Source: Mycobacteriaceae bacterium (GTDB lineage: Bacteria; Actinomycetota; Actinomycetes; Mycobacteriales; Mycobacteriaceae). Taken from it: 64,000 nucleotides of DNA. Shown here piece after piece: positions 10,849-63,748 of the stretch (positions are counted from its first letter, which is position 1; every line of letters starts with the position of its first letter). Where the stretch lies: contig JAPOKC010000002.1 in the NCBI GenBank assembly GCA_029977845.1, positions 996 through 64,995 on the forward strand, read 5' to 3'. Under the pieces are notes generated by a model. It saw only the letters and a program-made list of their open reading frames with translations, was not told the origin of the DNA and ran no database searches. A program made the position numbers and the translations under genes.

Positions 10849-12009
10849 CTACAGGCCCAGGAACTTCTTGGCATTCGTGCTGCAGATCTTCACCGCGTCC
10901 ACCTGGCCGACCGCGTCGACGACCGACCTCAGCGAGCGCTGCGAGTAACCGAAGGTGCTCTCGTTGTGCGGGTAGTCCGACGACCACATGACATTGTCGA
11001 CACCGATCTCGTCGAGCAGTCTCAGGCCGAGCGGATCGACCATGAACGATGCCGTCATGTGGTTGTTCCAGTAGTAGCGGATGTCGTGCTCGACTTCGCG
11101 GTTGAACATGTGCTGGTAGGAGGCGAGCAGATGTTCGGCATCCTGCAGGGCCGTGGCGACCCATGCGATACCGCCCTCGAACCAGCCGATCTTGAGCGTC
11201 GGGTGGCGATCGAGGATGCCGGTGAAGAGGTACTTCGAGAACGTCTCCCGGAATCCGTCGACATTGATCATCATGCCGACCACGACACTGTTGTTCTCGC
11301 ACGGCGTCTTCGGCGGAGTCTCACCGATGTGGTGGCTGACCGGCAGTCCGGCTTCCTCGATCTCGTCCCACACGGCGTCCATCGCTGCGCTGCCGTAGTC
11401 GATGATCGCGTCGTCGTCGCCCTTTCCGGGATTGAGCGGCATGAGGAACGTCTTGAGCCCCAATGACTTCACCTCGGCGAGCGTGCGCCGCGCTCCGGCG
11501 GGATCCCACCAGTTGATCAGACCGACACCGTAAAAATGGCCGTTGCTGCGTTCCTGGATCTCGGCGATGTATTCGTTGTAGATCCGGAACACCTGCTCGC
11601 GCAGTTGACGATCGGGGTAGTGGAACAGCGCCAGCACGGCGTTCGGGAAGGCCAGTTCCTTGTCGACGCCGTCCTGGTGAAGTTCGGCGATCCGGGCCTC
11701 GATGTTCGTGGTGGCCGCGCCGGCGAGATCGTCGTACTGCATCAGCACCCGGCTGAAGTCCAGCGGCAGGAAGGTCTGCCCCTTACCCTTCCCCACCATG
11801 TACGCCCCGTCTTCGTACCAGATCCGGGGTGCCTTCTCCTTGAACTCGGGCGGGAACTTCTCGTAGAAGATGTCCTCCGACAACGAGATGTGGTTGTCGG
11901 CCGAGAACACCTCGGTTCCCGCCGGGAGGCCGTTGGCCTCGTTGACATTGGCGTGGCGGTCCTTCGGAGCGCCGAAGCCGCCTCGGGGATAGACGATGGC
12001 CGTGGACAT
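10849..12009 (-). CDS. Amidohydrolase_2-fold protein; candidate dinuclear oxygenase or hydrolase
   Basis: SADNH, SHHIGE, WFEGG, SSDYPHNES. Confidence 0.85.
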   Translation of the reverse strand: MSTAIVYPRGGFGAPKDRHANVNEANGLPAGTEVFSADNHISLSEDIFYEKFPPEFKEKAPRIWYEDGAYMVGKGKGQTFLPLDFSRVLMQYDDLAGAATTNIEARIAELHQDGVDKELAFPNAVLALFHYPDRQLREQVFRIYNEYIAEIQERSNGHFYGVGLINWWDPAGARRTLAEVKSLGLKTFLMPLNPGKGDDDAIIDYGSAAMDAVWDEIEEAGLPVSHHIGETPPKTPCENNSVVVGMMINVDGFRETFSKYLFTGILDRHPTLKIGWFEGGIAWVATALQDAEHLLASYQHMFNREVEHDIRYYWNNHMTASFMVDPLGLRLLDEIGVDNVMWSSDYPHNESTFGYSQRSLRSVVDAVGQVDAVKICSTNAKKFLGL

Positions 12010-57965: not shown

Positions 57966-58028
57966 CGCTGCTAGTAGCGCACTCTACCGGCCTTTTCGGC
58001 CGCGGGACAGAGCGGGTTGCGGCAACGT

Positions 58029-58068
58029 GGTAACCACGTTCTACTATGACGAGGAGAACGTAATTCTT
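58029..58068. promoter_or_regulatory. Two operator copies upstream of the amidohydrolase-Rieske operon
   Basis: GGTAACCACGTTCTA (58029), GAGAACGTAATTCTT (58054). Confidence 0.6.
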
Positions 58069-58087: not shown

Positions 58088-59179
58088 GTGATCGAACACC
58101 GGGACGGAACGACGACTCCGCTGATTGACGCCAGCGTGCATATTTTCTTCGGCTCGACTCCGGAGTTGCGCGCCGTGATGCGGGAGCCGTTCAAGAGCCG
58201 CGGATTCCCGGACTACGAGATGGACTGGTACGGCGCCCCGGGCGGCGAGTACGCCAAGGGCACCCGTGGCCCCGACGGCCAGTACCCGGGATCCGATCCG
58301 GATCTGGTGGCACGCCACCTGTTCACCGACCGCGGAGTCGATGTCGCAGTGCTGCACCCGATGGGCCGCGGCATCATGCCCGACCGGCATCTGGGCACCG
58401 CGATCCTGTCCGCGCACAACGAGATGATGGTGTCGCGGTGGCTGGAGCATCCCGAATTCGGTGACAGATTCCGGGGCACCATCCGGGTCAACCCCGATGA
58501 CATCAGCGGCGCGCTGCGCGAGATCGAGAAGTACAAGAACCATCCGCGCGTCGTTCAGATCGGGATACCGCTGCAGTCGCGCGAACTGTATGGCAAGCCC
58601 CAGTTCTGGGACCTCTGGGAGGCGGCGGCCGCGGCCGGACTACCGGTGGCCACCCACATCGAACCCGGGGAGGGCATCGGGTTCAGTCCGACCCCAAGCG
58701 GTAACACCCGGACCTACGAGCAATACCTTGGTTTCATGTCGCTGAACTACGTCTACCACCTGCTGAACATGATCGCCGAGGGTGTGTTCGAGCGGTTCTC
58801 CGACCTCAGGGTCGTCTGGGCGGACGGTGCCGCTGACATGGTGACCCCGTTCATCTGGCGGATGGACTGCTTCGGCCGGCCGCATCTGGAGCAGACACCG
58901 TGGGCGCCGCGAATGCCCAGTGACTATCTTCCCGGTCACGTGTACTTCATCCACAACAGCCTGGACGGACCCGGCGACGCCGACTACGCCGACCAGTGGC
59001 TGTCGTTCACCGGCAAGGACGACATGCTGATGTTCGGTTCGAGTTATCCGTACTGGCATCTCTACGACGCACACGATCTGCCACCGGCGTGGACGGCCGA
59101 GCAGCGCGACAAAGTCTGCTGGCGTAACGCCGCCGGGCTTTATGGCATAGACATACCGGCCGGCGTGACCGCACAGTAG
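58088..59179 (+). CDS. Amidohydrolase_2-fold protein with degenerate metal site (putative structural subunit)
   Basis: DASVH, ATHIE, WADGAAD, GSSYPYW in place of DxDxH / E / SDYPH; start 58067 (TTG) or 58088 (GTG). Confidence 0.82.
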   Translation: MIEHRDGTTTPLIDASVHIFFGSTPELRAVMREPFKSRGFPDYEMDWYGAPGGEYAKGTRGPDGQYPGSDPDLVARHLFTDRGVDVAVLHPMGRGIMPDRHLGTAILSAHNEMMVSRWLEHPEFGDRFRGTIRVNPDDISGALREIEKYKNHPRVVQIGIPLQSRELYGKPQFWDLWEAAAAAGLPVATHIEPGEGIGFSPTPSGNTRTYEQYLGFMSLNYVYHLLNMIAEGVFERFSDLRVVWADGAADMVTPFIWRMDCFGRPHLEQTPWAPRMPSDYLPGHVYFIHNSLDGPGDADYADQWLSFTGKDDMLMFGSSYPYWHLYDAHDLPPAWTAEQRDKVCWRNAAGLYGIDIPAGVTAQ

Positions 59180-59199
59180 GAACGAACGAGGAGACCACC

Positions 59200-60354
59200 A
59201 TGACGCTGAGCCATATTCAGGAACGCGTTACTCCTGCCGAGCGTGTTCCGGTGCGCTGCGTCGATTCCGATGTCCACCCGGTGCCCCGGCGTGGAGTGAT
59301 GCAGCAGTACATCCCGGAGCCGATTCGCAGCAAGTACTTCACTAACCACTCAGTCGGCGAGACCATCTACTACGACGCTCCGGATTACGCGCACGCCTAT
59401 GCGATGCGGGTGGACACCTTCCCGCCCGACGGGGAGTTCGCCTGCACCGATCCGGACATGGCGTTTCGCCAAGCGATCATGGAGGCCGGCGCCGATATCG
59501 CGATACTCGAGCCCGTGTTCGCGACCTGCCGGTTGCCGGAGGCCACCGTGGCGCTGGCCGCCGCGCACAACAGCTGGCAGGACGAGCACTGGCTGGACAG
59601 CAAGAACAACTGGCACGGCCGCTGGCGCGGATCGATCTGCGTGGCCATCGAAGACCCTGCGGCAGCGGTCCTCGAGATCGAGAAGTGGGCCGGCCACCCC
59701 AGCATGTCGCAGATCCTGATCAGGGCGGAGCCCAGACCCTCCTGGGGGGACCCCGTCTACGACCCGGTCTGGGCGGCGGCCACCAAACACGACATCACAG
59801 TCAGCTGCCACCTCGGGCGAGGGCACAGCGAACTGCTGCCCCTACCGCCGGTGGGCTTTCCCAGCTACAACCACGACATGATGGTCAGCTACTCGCTTCT
59901 GGCCAACAACCAGGTGATGAGCCTGATCTTCGACGGCGTCTTCGATCGATTCCCCACCCTGCGTGTGGTTTTCGTCGAACACGCATTCAACTGGATCCTG
60001 CCGCTGATGTGGCGGATGGATGCGATCTACGAAGCGCGCAAGTCGTGGATGGACATCAAGCGCAAGCCCAGCGAGTACGTCAAGGAACACATCAAGTTCA
60101 CCACGCAGCCACTGGACTACCCCGAGGACAAGACCGAGTTGCTGCGCGCCTTCGAGTGGATGGAGTGCGAGAAGATCCTGCTGTTCTCCTCGGACTATCC
60201 GCACTGGACCTACGACGATCCCCGCTGGCTGGTCAAGCACCTACCCGAGCATGCACGGGAAGCGGTGATGTTCCGCAACGGCATCGAGACCTACAAACTG
60301 CCCGACACCGTTCCGGCTCTCGAGGGCCAGACCCGGGTGTTCGACGTTCGATGA
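59200..60354 (+). CDS. Amidohydrolase_2-fold protein (putative catalytic subunit of a dinuclear monooxygenase)
   Basis: DSDVH, SCHLG, VFVEH, FTTQP, SSDYPHWTYDDP. Confidence 0.85.
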   Translation: MTLSHIQERVTPAERVPVRCVDSDVHPVPRRGVMQQYIPEPIRSKYFTNHSVGETIYYDAPDYAHAYAMRVDTFPPDGEFACTDPDMAFRQAIMEAGADIAILEPVFATCRLPEATVALAAAHNSWQDEHWLDSKNNWHGRWRGSICVAIEDPAAAVLEIEKWAGHPSMSQILIRAEPRPSWGDPVYDPVWAAATKHDITVSCHLGRGHSELLPLPPVGFPSYNHDMMVSYSLLANNQVMSLIFDGVFDRFPTLRVVFVEHAFNWILPLMWRMDAIYEARKSWMDIKRKPSEYVKEHIKFTTQPLDYPEDKTELLRAFEWMECEKILLFSSDYPHWTYDDPRWLVKHLPEHAREAVMFRNGIETYKLPDTVPALEGQTRVFDVR

Positions 60355-60746
60355 CCGAGGCGCAGAAGAAGGAACCCCGTCTGGCCCAGGGCCGCGAGCA
60401 CATCGTGGCGACGATCGACGAGATCCCGCCGGGCACCCACAAACTGGTTCCGATTGGCCGACACGGTGTCGGCGTCTACAACGTCAACGGCACCTTCTAC
60501 GCGATCGCCAACTTCTGCCCCCATGAAGGTGGCCCGCTGTGCTCCGGGCGACCGCGCGGCCGCAACATCGTCGATGAGAGCGTCCCCGGCGATGCCGTGA
60601 TGGTTCGCGACCTCGAGTACATCTACTGTCCCTGGCATCAGTGGGGTTTCGAACTGGCGACCGGCACCACCGCGGTGAAGCCCGAGTGGAGCATTCGCAC
60701 CTATCCGGTGCGGGTTGTGGGGACCGACATCCTCGTGCAGGCATGA
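60351..60746 (+). CDS. Rieske [2Fe-2S] ferredoxin
   Basis: CPHEGGPL...CPWHQWGF; ATG 60351 overlaps the upstream stop (ATGA). Confidence 0.93.
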   Translation: MTEAQKKEPRLAQGREHIVATIDEIPPGTHKLVPIGRHGVGVYNVNGTFYAIANFCPHEGGPLCSGRPRGRNIVDESVPGDAVMVRDLEYIYCPWHQWGFELATGTTAVKPEWSIRTYPVRVVGTDILVQA

Positions 60747-61648
60747 GCGCCGCAGCCAACGGCCCGCAGTTGCGGGGCGGCGAACAGGTCATGGAGATCA
60801 ACGGCGGCAACGTCGTCTACGAGATCCTCGGCGAATCCGGGGATTTCATCGCCCTGACTCCGGGCGGCCGGTACAGCAAGGACATCGAGGGCCTGCGCCC
60901 ACTGGCCGAGGAACTGGTCAAGGGCGGCTTTCGGGTACTGCTGTGGGACCGGCCCAACTGCGGAAAATCCGACCTGCAGTTCTACGGGCAGAGCGAGTCA
61001 CATATGCGCGCCGACACCCTGGCCGCACTGATTCGCGGCCTGGGAATCGGGCCCTGCGTCATCGCCGGTGGATCAGGTGGGGCACGGGACTCGATCCTCA
61101 CCACGATCCTGCATCCCGACCTGGTCACCAAACTCGTCACGTGGAACATCGTCGGCGGGGTGTACGGAAGTTTCGTGCTGGGTTCCTACTACCTGGTGCC
61201 GAGCATCCTCGCGGTGCGCGGATTGGGCATCAAGGGTCTGCTGCACGTTGACGAGTGGAAGGAGCGGATCGCCGAGAACCCGGCCAACAAGGACCGGATA
61301 CTGGCCATGGACGGTGATGAATTCCTCACGGTGATGCTGCGCTGGCTCAATGCGTTCGTTCCCAAGGCAGGTCAGGCCATCCCGGGCGTCGACGACGAAC
61401 TGTTCGGTCAGATCAAGGTTCCGACGCTGATCATCCGGGGCGGGGAGAACGACTGGGACCACCCCAAACGGACCTCCCTGGAGGTGAACTGTCTCATCCG
61501 CGGATCGAAACTGATCGACCCGCCCTGGCCGGAGGACGCCTGGGAGCGCGCCGGCGAGGACCGTGCATCCGGAAAAGTCAAGCGGTTCAACATGTTCGAC
61601 ACCTGGGTACAGGCCGCACCAGCCATTCTGGAATTCCTCGGCCGATGA
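60743..61648 (+). CDS. Alpha/beta hydrolase, atypical
   Basis: TPGGR, WDRPNCGKSD, GGSGG elbow, PTLIIRGGENDWDHP; ATG 60743 overlaps the Rieske stop. Confidence 0.82.
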   Translation: MSAAANGPQLRGGEQVMEINGGNVVYEILGESGDFIALTPGGRYSKDIEGLRPLAEELVKGGFRVLLWDRPNCGKSDLQFYGQSESHMRADTLAALIRGLGIGPCVIAGGSGGARDSILTTILHPDLVTKLVTWNIVGGVYGSFVLGSYYLVPSILAVRGLGIKGLLHVDEWKERIAENPANKDRILAMDGDEFLTVMLRWLNAFVPKAGQAIPGVDDELFGQIKVPTLIIRGGENDWDHPKRTSLEVNCLIRGSKLIDPPWPEDAWERAGEDRASGKVKRFNMFDTWVQAAPAILEFLGR

Positions 61649-61659
61649 CACCCCGGAGT

Positions 61660-62133
61660 TCACAGGATCCGAATTCGGACCTCACAGTTGGTCGCCGCTT
61701 CCAGCGCGGTGTAGACCCGGCTCTCCGGGATCCGGGCAAGGTCGTCCTTGCGCAAGGTCACGTCGAGGATGTCGTAGCCGTCCTCGCCACTGCTCCGGCT
61801 GACGTCACCGGCGAGTCCGAACCCGGCCAGCACTCCGTGAGCATCCTCGTCGGTGCCGCGGCTCACATAGGTCAGCGTCCCGGCGGCCGGGACCGTGCCG
61901 AAGGCCTCGGAGCAGATCGTCGTCGCGGTGCGTTTGAGTTCCTGCTCGTCGGCTCCGGCGATCAGGAACTCCGCCTCGCGGCGCCCGCGCGGCATCGCGG
62001 CCAGATTGTTGTCGACGACCTCGATTCCGGCCTGGTCGGCCAGAGCGCGCAGAGCCGCCACACCAGAACTCATCTCTTCCGGGGAGAGCCCACCCGACGG
62101 GTCGACATCGATCCGAACCACCGCCGTCCTCAT
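61660..62133 (-). CDS. Hypothetical protein
   Basis: 157 aa ORF MRTAVVRIDVDP...ALEAATNCEVRI fills the gap between two + strand genes. Confidence 0.65.
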   Translation of the reverse strand: MRTAVVRIDVDPSGGLSPEEMSSGVAALRALADQAGIEVVDNNLAAMPRGRREAEFLIAGADEQELKRTATTICSEAFGTVPAAGTLTYVSRGTDEDAHGVLAGFGLAGDVSRSSGEDGYDILDVTLRKDDLARIPESRVYTALEAATNCEVRIRIL

Positions 62134-62171
62134 GGTCATCAGCCTAATGAGGAGATCGACGGGAGAGCACA

Positions 62172-63452
62172 GTGCTGAAGGTTGCCGCGGCGCCCGGATG
62201 CGAACCTCGATTACTACGGTCGACGTCCGGGCTGGAAACCCACAGTGCCTACACCGCACCCGGCGGATACCGACTGCTGGACAGTGTGGAGGCGCTGCTC
62301 GCCGAAGTCGAGGAATCCGGGCTGCTCGGCCGCGGCGGCGCCGCGTTCCCGCTCGGTGTCAAACTCCGCACGGTGCGGGGGGCGCATCTCAAGGGCCACG
62401 AGACGGTCGTCGTCGCCAACGGTGAGGAGGGCGAGCCGGCCTCGGTCAAGGACCGGTGGCTGATGCGGCACCGGCCACATCTGGTGATCGACGGACTACG
62501 GCTCGCGGCCCGGATGGTCGGTGCCGAACGGGCATTCCTCTACGTCGCCGACCCGCAGTCGGCGGTCACCCTGGACGCCGCTCTGAACGAGGTGGGTTTC
62601 GACACTCTGGGCGGCTTGAACATCGGCATCGTGATCGTTGCGCCGGGTTATGTGGCCGGTGAGGAGACCGCCGCGGTACGCGCCATCAACGGCGGGCCGG
62701 CGAAACCGACCGACAAACCACCCAGGCCCTTCCAGCATGGCGTGCTCGGCCATCCGACGCTGGTGAGCAATGTCGAAACGCTGGCGAATCTGCCCTTTCT
62801 ACAACGCCGCGGCGCTGCGGTGTTCCGGTCGGCGGGCACCGCCGCATCTCCCGGAACCTTCCTGATGACAGTGACCGGCGGAGCCGGAAGTCCCGCGCTG
62901 TATGAAATTCCACATGGCATGCCGGTGATGGATCTTCTTGCCATGCACGGTGTTTCGCCCAATGACGTTCGCGGTGCGATGGTCGGCGGTTACTTCGCAG
63001 GCCTGATGAACCGCCGGGTGCTGGACGCCTCACTGGATCATGAGACCTTCCGGCAACTGGGCTGCGGTCTGGGGTGCGGTGCGATCGCCCTCCTGACCGA
63101 TGACTGTCCCGTGGCGGTCGCCGCCGCTGTCCTGGACTATTTCGACCGCGAGAACGCCGGCCAGTGCGGGTCGTGTTTCAACGGCACCGCGGCGATGGCA
63201 GCCGCCGCAGGCGCACTGCGGGACGGATCAGCAGGCGCCGAGGACGTCGCCCGCCTGCAACGGTGGTCGGTGGTGCTGCGCGGCCGCGGCGCCTGCGCGA
63301 CACTGGACGGCGCCACCAACATCGCCGCCAGCCTGCTGGCGGATTTTCCCGGCGAGGTGCAACAACACCTTTCCGGTGATTGCCAGACCTGCCGACCGGG
63401 TGCGTTCGCAGCCCTGCGGCCCTATGAGGTGGAGGCGGTGAGCCCGGTATGA
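62172..63452 (+). CDS. Stand-alone NuoF-like (FMN, NADH-binding, Fe-S) flavoprotein
   Basis: SGLLGRGGAAFP, NGEEGEPAS, YVAGEETA, NVETLA, ENAGQCGSC...GAC; no other nuo genes nearby. Confidence 0.88.
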   Translation: MLKVAAAPGCEPRLLRSTSGLETHSAYTAPGGYRLLDSVEALLAEVEESGLLGRGGAAFPLGVKLRTVRGAHLKGHETVVVANGEEGEPASVKDRWLMRHRPHLVIDGLRLAARMVGAERAFLYVADPQSAVTLDAALNEVGFDTLGGLNIGIVIVAPGYVAGEETAAVRAINGGPAKPTDKPPRPFQHGVLGHPTLVSNVETLANLPFLQRRGAAVFRSAGTAASPGTFLMTVTGGAGSPALYEIPHGMPVMDLLAMHGVSPNDVRGAMVGGYFAGLMNRRVLDASLDHETFRQLGCGLGCGAIALLTDDCPVAVAAAVLDYFDRENAGQCGSCFNGTAAMAAAAGALRDGSAGAEDVARLQRWSVVLRGRGACATLDGATNIAASLLADFPGEVQQHLSGDCQTCRPGAFAALRPYEVEAVSPV

Positions 63453-63748
63453 GCGAGGGTCTGAGAATTCGTCTGGACCGCACGATCTGTGACGGCTTCG
63501 GCGCCTGCGCCAAACACGCGCCGGACTACTTCTCGCTCGACGACTGGGGGTACGCGACCCTGATCGGCGATGGCGTGATTCCGGAGGCTGACCGCGCCGA
63601 CGTATTGCGGGCGGTGTTCGACTGTCCGGCCAACGCGATCATCGAGATGAGCGGTGACGAGTTCGCCGGGGAAGTGCATCCCGATCCACGCCGGCAGTCC
63701 GAGGACGAGACGCCGGCCTTCGAAGCCCATTGGGGATTCGCCCAGTGA
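63449..63748 (+). CDS. Ferredoxin (CxxFxxC...CP) with acidic C-terminal extension
   Basis: CDGFGAC...DCPANAI; coupled to the NuoF-like gene by ATGA overlap. Confidence 0.88.
   Translation: MSEGLRIRLDRTICDGFGACAKHAPDYFSLDDWGYATLIGDGVIPEADRADVLRAVFDCPANAIIEMSGDEFAGEVHPDPRRQSEDETPAFEAHWGFAQ

Follow-up and report, generated by a model that had tools for sequence, protein, structure and literature searches.

What do two tandem genes annotated as amidohydrolases do beside two ferredoxin genes and a gene whose product resembles a subunit of complex I? The question is raised by positions 58088-63748 of a 64,000-nucleotide stretch of mycobacterial DNA (hereafter the window; G000:C76:996-64995), which comes from a 2.79-Mb genome in 152 contigs that is 73% complete, has about 65% G+C and finds its nearest relatives among Mycobacterium and Mycolicibacterium species. 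An earlier note, made from the sequence alone, had read the locus as a multicomponent oxygenase with its own electron supply. Our analysis leads to a related reading that we consider likely, namely that the locus encodes an enzyme of the kind termed amidohydrolase-related dinuclear oxygenases (AROs), composed of a ligand-bearing subunit (ARO2, alpha) and a degenerate partner (ARO1, alpha-prime) and fed by NAD(P)H via a NuoF-like flavoprotein, a ferredoxin and a Rieske ferredoxin. This reading is built on sequence-based family membership, the ligand pattern, the conserved linkage of seven genes, a protein in which NuoF-like and ferredoxin parts are fused, and the prediction of an alpha/alpha-prime interface.

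The closest known model is AibH1H2 of Rhodococcus wratislaviensis, a 2-aminoisobutyrate (Aib) hydroxylase with alpha2 alpha-prime2 composition (PDB 6M1W, 8FUL-8FUO), which was described together with AibG and AibF (Hibi 2021, PMC7782822). It was later assigned a Mn/Fe cofactor in a study that counted 555 AibH2-like proteins, 90% of them with a Rieske neighbour (Powell 2023, PMC10401708). The name ARO and the discovery of further members through Rieske neighbourhoods followed (Liu 2024, PMC10811679). The current definition combines an N-terminal D-x-H with a C-terminal D-x-P-H-x-[D/E] that must have at least about 200 residues before it, covers about 17,000 sequences and distinguishes high- and low-potential classes (Liu 2026, PMC13154177), of which the low-potential, Rieske-coupled class was tied to a second-sphere pattern by the Rittle laboratory (PMC13154177). 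Both the enzyme kind and its discovery through Rieske neighbours are already published (2021-2026). The suggestion that oxygenases hide here under 'amidohydrolase' labels fits the family, but the point itself had been made before (PMC10811679, PMC13154177). New in this locus are a Thr/Ser clade that fails the family motif, an independent and more degraded partner, a NuoF-like protein with two ferredoxins, including a fused form, and two conserved accessory genes.

Family membership and metal ligands of ARO2

ARO2 (59200..60354, + strand), whose ATG is preceded by a GGAG ribosome-binding site, matches Pfam PF04909 (Amidohydro_2) at 8e-23; this match and the weaker one of ARO1 (7e-16) both exceed the Pfam gathering score. 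Among solved structures it is closest to 8SM7 (3.5e-55), followed by SfbO (8SM6, 1.2e-51), AibH2 (6M1W_B, 2e-45), 8SM8 (1.7e-41) and 8SM9 (2.5e-39). Matches to AibH1 (about 1e-34), PtmU3 (9e-14) and DitZ (8.5e-9) are weaker, and the non-redox PF04909 decarboxylases reach 1e-10 or worse. The matches to 8SM7, SfbO and AibH2 place the pair within the AROs by sequence, as had been proposed.

We aligned 16 ARO2 orthologues from Mycolicibacterium, Rhodococcus, Nocardia and Cryptosporangium (72-88% identical). Residues D24, H26, H204, E260, D332 and H335 are invariant and align with the six metal ligands of SfbO and AibH2. The N-terminal D24-V-H26 corresponds to the D-x-H of 8SM7, SfbO and AibH2, and the mid-barrel H204 and the bridging E260 have counterparts in the same three proteins. 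In the second sphere ARO2 has Val at gamma1, Ser at gamma3, Trp at gamma4 and Tyr or Phe at gamma5, a pattern of the low-potential, Rieske-docking L-type AROs, in which the gamma4 and gamma5 aromatics were proposed to form the Rieske docking site (PMC13154177).

The L-type enzymes (SfbO with SfbR, and the orphan AROs 8SM7-8SM9; PMC10811679, PMC13154177) give the best sequence matches to ARO2 and resemble it in the D-V-H, in a gamma3 of small size, in the gamma4 Trp and gamma5 aromatic, and in having a small Rieske ferredoxin encoded next to them. Those enzymes, however, are single-subunit as described and carry D-Y-P-H-W-D, whereas here the motif ends in Thr and the gene of a degenerate partner always lies upstream; moreover, their reductases lie outside the described gene sets, unlike in this module. 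With the H-type diiron terpenoid hydroxylases PtmU3 (6OMP) and DitZ (8UYR), ARO2 shares the fold, the ligand set and a terpenoid-pathway-like context, but the two are distant in sequence, their gamma1 is hydrophilic, and they have been described without a Rieske partner.

The departure from the family lies in the C-terminal motif, D332-Y-P-H335-W-T337. Thr337 is invariant in the 16 orthologues, and with it ARO2 fails the published D-x-P-H-x-[D/E] at the final position. The earlier note had entered this threonine as a caveat; its presence at the motif end is confirmed, but the caveat is weightier than it seemed, since the published family motif requires Asp or Glu there. Asp occupies the position in 94 of 113 full-length nearest representatives at 50% clustering; the two nearest (46-48% identity) have Ser instead, one distant sequence has Thr, and three have Asn. 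In L-type AROs the final Asp belongs to the second sphere and forms a hydrogen bond to an aquo ligand at metal site 2, the site of substrate binding; only in PtmU3 is the acid a direct ligand.

This residue counts against an oxygenase, and it suggests another account, in which ARO2 is mononuclear like AibH1, or is a non-redox PF04909 enzyme (a hydrolase, decarboxylase or hydratase), so that the pair is no oxygenase and the iron-sulphur genes serve some other function. All characterised AROs have Asp at the position of Thr337 (Glu in PtmU3), and Hibi et al. argued that the acid is necessary for a binuclear centre (PMC7782822). AibH1 retains the same six residues, has lost the acid and binds one metal (PMC7782822), so the six ligands are not sufficient for a dinuclear site. 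The D342A variant of AibH2 has lost nearly all activity (PMC10401708), and most characterised PF04909 enzymes are non-redox (PMC10811679). On the other side, AibH2 D342A still binds both metals, the gamma4 and gamma5 aromatics are kept in ARO2 as against Lys and His in AibH1, the Rieske gene is coupled to ARO2, electron-transfer genes are linked to it in five lineages, and oxygenase activity would be conceivable even for a single-Fe site supplied by a Rieske protein. A maximum-likelihood tree of 126 sequences (quick IQ-TREE search, midpoint root, support by the Shimodaira-Hasegawa-like approximate likelihood ratio test, SH-aLRT) also speaks against this account: in it the Thr and Ser clades are sisters (100% support for the Thr clade, 100% for the two together), nested among Asp-type, Rieske-linked AROs. 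We judge a mononuclear or non-redox ARO2 improbable. In the ARO-kind oxygenase, ARO2 would provide the metal site, probably with two metals (Fe2 or Mn/Fe); that it holds two is, from the sequence, a fairly likely assignment and not a secure one.

The same machine might also carry out other chemistry, a possibility that overlaps with the ARO-kind oxygenase and does not exclude it. Thr or Ser would then retune the site for another reaction, such as the N- or O-dealkylation known from SfbO, the oxidative decarboxylation known from BarH/DolJ, or desaturation, and the hydrolase encoded in the module would process a labile product. AROs are already known to catalyse several reaction types (PMC13154177), dealkylation by SfbO among them; the Asp that hydrogen-bonds the site-2 aquo ligand is needed for AibH2 activity; and the hydrolase is kept in four of five lineages. 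Thr and Ser can still hydrogen-bond, however, and the change may be mild. We assign such a shift a minor but appreciable chance. With or without it, ARO2 would activate O2 and oxidise a C-H bond of what is probably a hydrophobic or CoA-linked catabolite.

The degenerate partner ARO1

ARO1 is encoded directly upstream of ARO2 (+ strand, from a TTG at 58067 or an alternative GTG at 58088 to 59179). Its matches to solved structures (8SM7 7e-44, AibH1 about 1e-30, AibH2 5e-27) are weaker than those of ARO2, and its metal site is largely dismantled. In the ARO1 orthologues S-V-H replaces D-x-H, His190 is kept, Asp246 replaces the Glu, and S-Y-P-[H/Y/D]-W replaces D-x-P-H, so that neither terminal ARO motif is present. 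Both Asp-to-Ser changes are invariant in an alignment of 11 orthologues from 5 lineages, and the protein of the window additionally has Tyr at the site-2 His. The residue strings quoted in the earlier note were read correctly (the sequence shows IDASVH, WADG and SSYPYW in ARO1, and DSDVH, a mid His, VEH and SDYPHWT in ARO2), and so was the division of labour drawn from them, since ARO2 keeps six ligands and ARO1 has lost both Asp ligands. AibH1, which by alignment reads D-V-H ... H ... E ... D-Y-P-H-K-H, retains a mononuclear Asp,His,His,Glu,Asp site; this is absent from ARO1, where the residues are Ser,His,His,Asp,Ser. Because its orthologues are 72-89% identical, ARO1 is under selection, and by its residues it is a conserved pseudo-enzyme, more degraded than AibH1.

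The tree separates this partner from AibH1. ARO1 and its paralogues form a clade (99%) within a wider group of motif-less, partner-like proteins, and this group together with the ARO2-containing group splits at 100% SH-aLRT from the AibH1-like and AibH2-like sequences, for which proteins of a Mycobacterium locus (L104) served as proxies and not Rhodococcus AibH1 and AibH2 themselves. As the ARO1 clade groups with the ARO2-containing clade and away from the proxies, the degenerate partner arose separately from AibH1. The system is thus no orthologue of AibH1H2, to which the earlier note likened it: ARO1 stems from another duplication than the AibH1-like proxy, and its site is the more degraded. 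ARO1 as an AibH1 orthologue is ruled out by the same 100% split, a proxy-based result under a midpoint root. Partner-type proteins elsewhere (P0170, P0201) also occur in Rieske-ARO-ARO triads.

In its architecture the locus nevertheless parallels AibH1H2. The PF04909 paralogues lie side by side, are about 30% identical and stand in the order partner-catalytic-Rieske; one subunit has the six ligands, its partner being non-catalytic; the flavoprotein contains FMN and is NADH-linked, and an alpha/alpha-prime interface is predicted. Apart from the lack of orthology and the more degraded partner site, it differs in having Thr in ARO2 against the essential Asp342 of AibH2, and in its NuoF-like protein and extra Fer4_15 ferredoxin in place of AibF (FMN plus plant-type [2Fe-2S]), an AibF-type reductase gene being absent from the module. 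It also has a conserved hydrolase and orfX in addition, and no amino-acid permease or Aib pathway genes.

We modelled the complex of ARO2 with ARO1 and obtained an ipSAE of 0.88 (range over the runs 0.87-0.89; best of 3 controls 0.00), although AibH1H2 is a similar solved complex and the score may reflect memory of it. The contacts agree between runs to at least 91%, and the partner pLDDT is at least 86. The ipSAE mark applied is reached by 58 of 80 solved complexes and by 2 of 110 mismatched pairs, which gives a rough guide only, as custom alignments were used. The prediction agrees with the heteromer proposed in the earlier note, as a likeness and not as binding. Two reservations count against taking it further, namely that it may reproduce the solved AibH1H2 or an interface common to dimers of the family, and that it does not tell hetero- from homo-oligomers. 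With these reservations, ARO1 would act as a pseudo-enzyme partner, without both Asp ligands, in a heteromer with ARO2.

Paralogous loci

Several paralogues of the pair occur outside the module. A solitary ARO2 paralogue, about 81% identical and carrying D-Y-P-H-W-T, is present in 20 of 80 Mycobacterium loci (among them L028-L032, L035, L038, L039 and L044). Its context, read in L032:4000-17800, consists of hemA/hemC/hemD-cysG/hemB, a P-type ATPase gene and an MpaB/Lcp-like oxygenase gene. No ARO1, small Rieske or NuoF-like gene adjoins it, a point that counts against the reading preferred here. The genomes concerned also carry the full module, the tree identifies the solitary gene as a recent duplicate, and its product may borrow partners in trans.

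Five further loci of the same genus (L100-L103 and L105, in G016, G024, G010, G003 and G015) contain triads Rieske-ARO1'-ARO2', whose products are 49% and 44% identical to ARO1 and ARO2 and show the motifs S-Y-P-H-W-S-T (ARO1') and D-Y-P-H-W-S-Y (ARO2'). These triads adjoin cytochrome P450 (P450), short-chain dehydrogenase/reductase (SDR) and acyl-CoA dehydrogenase genes, and no NuoF-like gene, ferredoxin, orfX or hydrolase was found with them. Locus L104 (G001:C3:10000-29999), the source of the proxies, belongs to another species of the genus and holds a closer AibH1H2-like pair (D-Y-P-H-F-D-F and D-Y-P-H-R-H-H), accompanied by genes for a Rieske ferredoxin and an aldehyde dehydrogenase and by 3-hydroxyisobutyrate-dehydrogenase-like genes.

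Conservation of the seven-gene set

Downstream of ARO2 on the + strand follow a Rieske [2Fe-2S] ferredoxin of 131 aa (60351..60746; Pfam Rieske/Rieske_2, 2e-12; cluster motif C-P-H ... C-P-W-H) and an alpha/beta-fold hydrolase (60743, or from an alternative ATG at 60791, to 61648; Pfam Abhydrolase_6, weak, 2e-5). A NuoF-like flavoprotein (62172..63452; Pfam Complex1_51K, SLBB and NADH_4Fe-4S) and a single-cluster Fer4_15 ferredoxin (63449..63748) complete the + strand genes. Pfam and open reading frame (ORF) reading recover all six genes that the earlier note had named, on the + strand and in the same places. The translational couplings are real as well: ATGA start/stop overlaps join ARO2 to the Rieske gene (60351), the Rieske gene to the hydrolase (60743) and the NuoF-like gene to its ferredoxin (63449).

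A seventh gene, orfX (61660..62133, - strand, 157 aa), had been overlooked in that inventory. It has no Pfam match and is divergent from the NuoF-like gene, and a + strand ORF at 61645-62178 is its shadow. The orthologues of orfX are 54-74% identical in every related locus examined, and the gene is for that reason regarded as real; it occurs in all five lineages. As orfX lies on the minus strand between the hydrolase and the NuoF-like gene, the locus consists of two divergent units and not of one operon. The divergent starts are separated by 38 bp (62134-62171); in other genera the distance is about 47-116 bp and varies with the choice of start. The short gap suggests overlapping promoters or leaderless transcripts.

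We compared the neighbourhoods of the 80 best Mycobacterium loci and of loci from Cryptosporangium, Rhodococcus, Nocardia and G323, a genome of another family. The order ARO1-ARO2-Rieske-hydrolase-orfX-NuoF-like-ferredoxin is kept in 60 of the 80 Mycobacterium loci (type A), with Rieske, hydrolase, orfX and ferredoxin genes each present in 60/60 and the NuoF-like gene in 58/60. Within Mycobacterium alone this could be plain synteny. The same set, however, is found between unrelated flanks in Cryptosporangium, Rhodococcus and Nocardia, and in a different arrangement in G323, where hydrolase-ARO1-ARO2-Rieske-NuoF-Fd (Fd, the ferredoxin) lie on one strand and orfX lies 1.5 kb upstream. The hydrolase was not found beside the module in Nocardia (L098). 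ARO1 and ARO2 paralogues thus stand in one unit with a small Rieske gene in 60 of 80 Mycobacterium loci and four further lineages, and the Rieske ferredoxin is 81-93% identical in all orthologous loci. In Cryptosporangium aurantiacum an Nramp (Mn/Fe) transporter gene directly follows the module ferredoxin (L094:14342-15577) and precedes a two-domain TetR gene; this neighbour is suggestive of a Mn/Fe enzyme, though it was observed in a single genus.

The NuoF-like protein and the proposed electron supply

The NuoF-like protein matches HydB/NuoF structures at about 1e-54 to 1e-50 and keeps the FMN/NADH motifs GRGGAAFP, GEEGEP and GEETA. With the NuoF, HydB and HoxF proteins of complex I, NAD-linked hydrogenases and formate dehydrogenases it shares the Complex1_51K FMN/NADH fold, the SLBB domain and a C-terminal iron-sulphur domain. 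Unlike these, it is stand-alone, with no NuoE-like gene in the module, and its linkage or fusion partners, in aerobic actinomycetes, are a Fer4_15 ferredoxin and oxygenase genes. Its iron-sulphur site also appears to be rebuilt. The four-Cys N3 [4Fe-4S] motif of complex I NuoF is incomplete, the first Cys being Ala in all orthologues (ENAGQCGSCFNGT invariant), while C332, C335 and C375 are kept and C302, C312, C404 and C407 are additional invariant cysteines. The NCBIfam nuoF_fam model scores it at 222 bits against an equivalog cut-off of 559, and an ordinary NuoF (ESCGKCTPCREGT) is encoded on contig C98 of the same genome; together these exclude the gene as a complex I subunit.

We presume that the protein is the NAD(P)H:ferredoxin reductase of the system. 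In Nocardia it is fused to the ferredoxin in a single protein of 500 aa. The separate ferredoxin of the window has the pattern C-x2-F-x2-C ... C-P, as in 3Fe-4S types. Electrons would probably pass from NAD(P)H to the FMN and iron-sulphur clusters of the NuoF-like protein, then to the Fer4_15 ferredoxin, the Rieske ferredoxin and finally ARO2. A D-type relative (L109), in which a Fer4_15 ferredoxin, an ordinary Pyr_redox_2 ferredoxin reductase, an ARO, a Rieske protein and a second ARO are encoded side by side, shows that a reductase, Fer4_15, Rieske layout recurs; here the NuoF-like protein takes the place of the reductase. A chain from an NADH reductase through a Rieske ferredoxin to a carboxylate-bridged dimetal hydroxylase, with small accessory proteins, is also known from toluene-4-monooxygenase (comparison in PMC7782822), from which the present system differs in its TIM barrel in place of a four-helix bundle, its type of reductase and its additional ferredoxin.

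The electron carriers could, alternatively, be meant for other enzymes, in that the NuoF-like/ferredoxin pair mainly serves the neighbouring P450s (or Rieske oxygenases) and the Rieske protein of the ARO is reduced by another cellular reductase. Actinobacterial P450s usually have ferredoxins of the Fer4_15 class as their partners. In Mycobacterium the module is flanked within 10 kb by three P450 genes, whose products could be other users of the ferredoxin, no other reductase is seen in this stretch, and the NuoF-like unit would be transcribed apart from ARO1-ARO2-Rieske-hydrolase. Against an exclusive link to the oxygenase stand the paralogous Rieske-ARO1'-ARO2' triads, which have no reductase of their own within 10 kb, and a distant stand-alone NuoF-like protein in G234 (49% identity), whose gene neighbours that of a Rieske oxygenase alpha subunit in an ARO-less genome.

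The gene neighbourhoods point the other way. Cryptosporangium, Nocardia and G323 keep the pair together with ARO1, ARO2 and Rieske and have no P450 next to the module, an absence that weakens the idea of a service to P450s only. In G323 ARO2 is followed without interruption, on the same strand, by the Rieske, NuoF-like and ferredoxin genes. We found 11 NuoF-like orthologues (at least 57% identity) in 301 genomes of the class, and all 7 of those checked, the window's own included, lie within about 4 kb of an ARO2 orthologue. The linkage asserted in the earlier note is upheld by this comparison: the NuoF-like/ferredoxin pair belongs to the conserved set in five lineages and is not a mere neighbour. 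We accordingly think it unlikely that P450s or Rieske oxygenases are its main clients, and retain the ARO-kind oxygenase as the recipient of its electrons.

The G234 protein (L110, G234:C19:170500-187500) shows the same loss of the first N3 Cys. Its gene is divergent from that of the Rieske non-heme oxygenase alpha subunit and lies beside those of an ADP-forming acyl-CoA synthetase and an acyl-CoA dehydrogenase. A search of the G234 genome gave no ARO2 match, and a neighbouring 135-aa ORF, compared with orfX, proved not to be homologous. The NuoF-like subfamily may be a more general oxygenase reductase. We found no description of a NuoF-like oxygenase reductase or of these mycobacterial genes in the literature searched, whose coverage was not exhaustive and included few subscription papers. 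The wider proposal that a NuoE-less NuoF-like flavoprotein with a rebuilt iron-sulphur site forms an undescribed class of oxygenase reductase, feeding the Rieske protein via a 3Fe-4S-type ferredoxin and serving Thr/Ser-clade heteromeric TIM-barrel oxygenases whose partner is independent of AibH1, is put forward tentatively, with rather less confidence than the oxygenase itself.

Accessory genes and candidate regulators

The hydrolase has a GGSGG nucleophile elbow, and its Abhydrolase_6 score (25.9 bits) falls just under the 26.3 cut-off; the nearest solved structure, a MhpC-type C-C hydrolase, is remote (8e-7). For orfX no Pfam or NCBIfam family was found, and the Atlas returned only unnamed actinobacterial clusters. 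Its AlphaFold2 model (pLDDT 88) consists of two tandem ferredoxin-like (beta-alpha-beta-beta-alpha-beta) domains. Foldseek against the PDB gave nothing at E<=1e-3. The best VIA-align Z of 7.5 lies inside the stated noise range of the tool, as the arrangement is common, and the matches at or below this value comprise heavy-metal-associated (HMA)-type metallochaperone, cation diffusion facilitator (CDF) transporter C-terminal and ACT-like domains together with many unrelated ferredoxin-like folds. That orfX is a metallochaperone or a ligand sensor is only an idea. Both proteins are members of the conserved set, the hydrolase perhaps for hydrolysis of a product or precursor and orfX perhaps for binding of a ligand or metal.

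A perfect 17-bp palindrome (58024..58040, AACGTGGT-A-ACCACGTT) lies 27 bp upstream of the TTG start of ARO1. It is unique in the window at 0 mismatches, with 0.18 matches expected at up to 3 mismatches, and from its sequence it is a candidate operator. Only the closest Mycobacterium loci have a looser and less symmetric motif of this kind (AAAGTGGTAAYGAGGTT), located 80-130 bp upstream of ARO1, and none was found in the Rhodococcus, Nocardia, Cryptosporangium and G323 loci. A large two-domain TetR protein (435-456 aa) is encoded in the flanks of the module in Nocardia, Cryptosporangium and G323 (L098:7413-8723, L094:15633-16940, L106:6055-7425) and in six Mycobacterium loci (L048, L054, L056, L067, L081 and L082). 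Two TetR_N stretches were scored in the G323 copy, and no orthologue was found in the 73%-complete genome of the window.

Genomic context and possible substrates

The window as a whole is a large catabolic island with genes for an aldehyde dehydrogenase, SDRs, P450s, an acyl-CoA dehydrogenase pair, 3-hydroxyisobutyrate-dehydrogenase-like proteins and a CoA transferase. Immediately downstream of the module, from 63654 or 63759 to beyond the end of the window (L001:6650-8401), lies a gene in which a ChsH2-type zinc ribbon and OB domain are fused to a thiolase-like (lipid-transfer protein) domain. After it come a second alpha/beta hydrolase gene, two 3-hydroxyisobutyrate-dehydrogenase-like genes and two P450 genes. 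The whole block is syntenic with the module in Mycobacterium only. The flanks vary by genus and include SDR, acyl-CoA dehydrogenase, CoA ligase or transferase, 3-hydroxyisobutyrate-dehydrogenase-like, KstD-like, KshA-like, Baeyer-Villiger monooxygenase, P450 and B12 mutase genes.

No specific substrate could be derived from these flanks. A hydrophobic or CoA-linked catabolite, possibly terpenoid- or steroid-derived, would fit the context. That the enzyme is a hydroxylase acting on a lipid or terpenoid (possibly on a ring methyl group), as the earlier note proposed, is a possibility suggested by this context.

The same island contains a third amidohydrolase-fold gene (10849-12009, - strand), whose product carries D-Y-P-H-N-E, fits the published ARO motif and best matches PtmU3 (1.3e-23) and DitZ (7e-23). 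Judged by these features it is probably an H-type, single-subunit ARO.

Implications

AROs are a young superfamily (2019-2026) that carries out difficult C-H oxidations with Fe2, Mn/Fe or Mn2 centres, and its extent has been estimated by a sequence motif. Here a conserved actinobacterial clade keeps all direct ligands and a dedicated electron chain, yet fails that motif. If the wider, tentative proposal holds, the family is larger than the published motif counts, and a metal preference or chemistry of its own is conceivable for the Thr/Ser site. Because AibH2 D342A is inactive, the Thr/Ser clade amounts to a natural test of the role of the second-sphere Asp. ARO1 would offer a second example of an independently evolved pseudo-enzyme partner, and orfX could prove to be a dedicated metal- or ligand-binding accessory protein.

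The combination of a complex-I flavoprotein module with two ferredoxins is a type of reductase that we did not find described for oxygenases in the literature searched. Native ARO reductases are mostly unknown, which limits in vitro work, so a complete and conserved chain would be practically useful. Finally, metagenomes from ten studies of freshwater, drinking water, groundwater, seawater, estuaries and wastewater contain 98-100% of the words sampled from 58088-63748; one or more of them may have supplied this DNA, and no RNA run is listed for it. The near-unchanged occurrence of this DNA suggests that the pathway may matter for carbon turnover by environmental mycobacteria.

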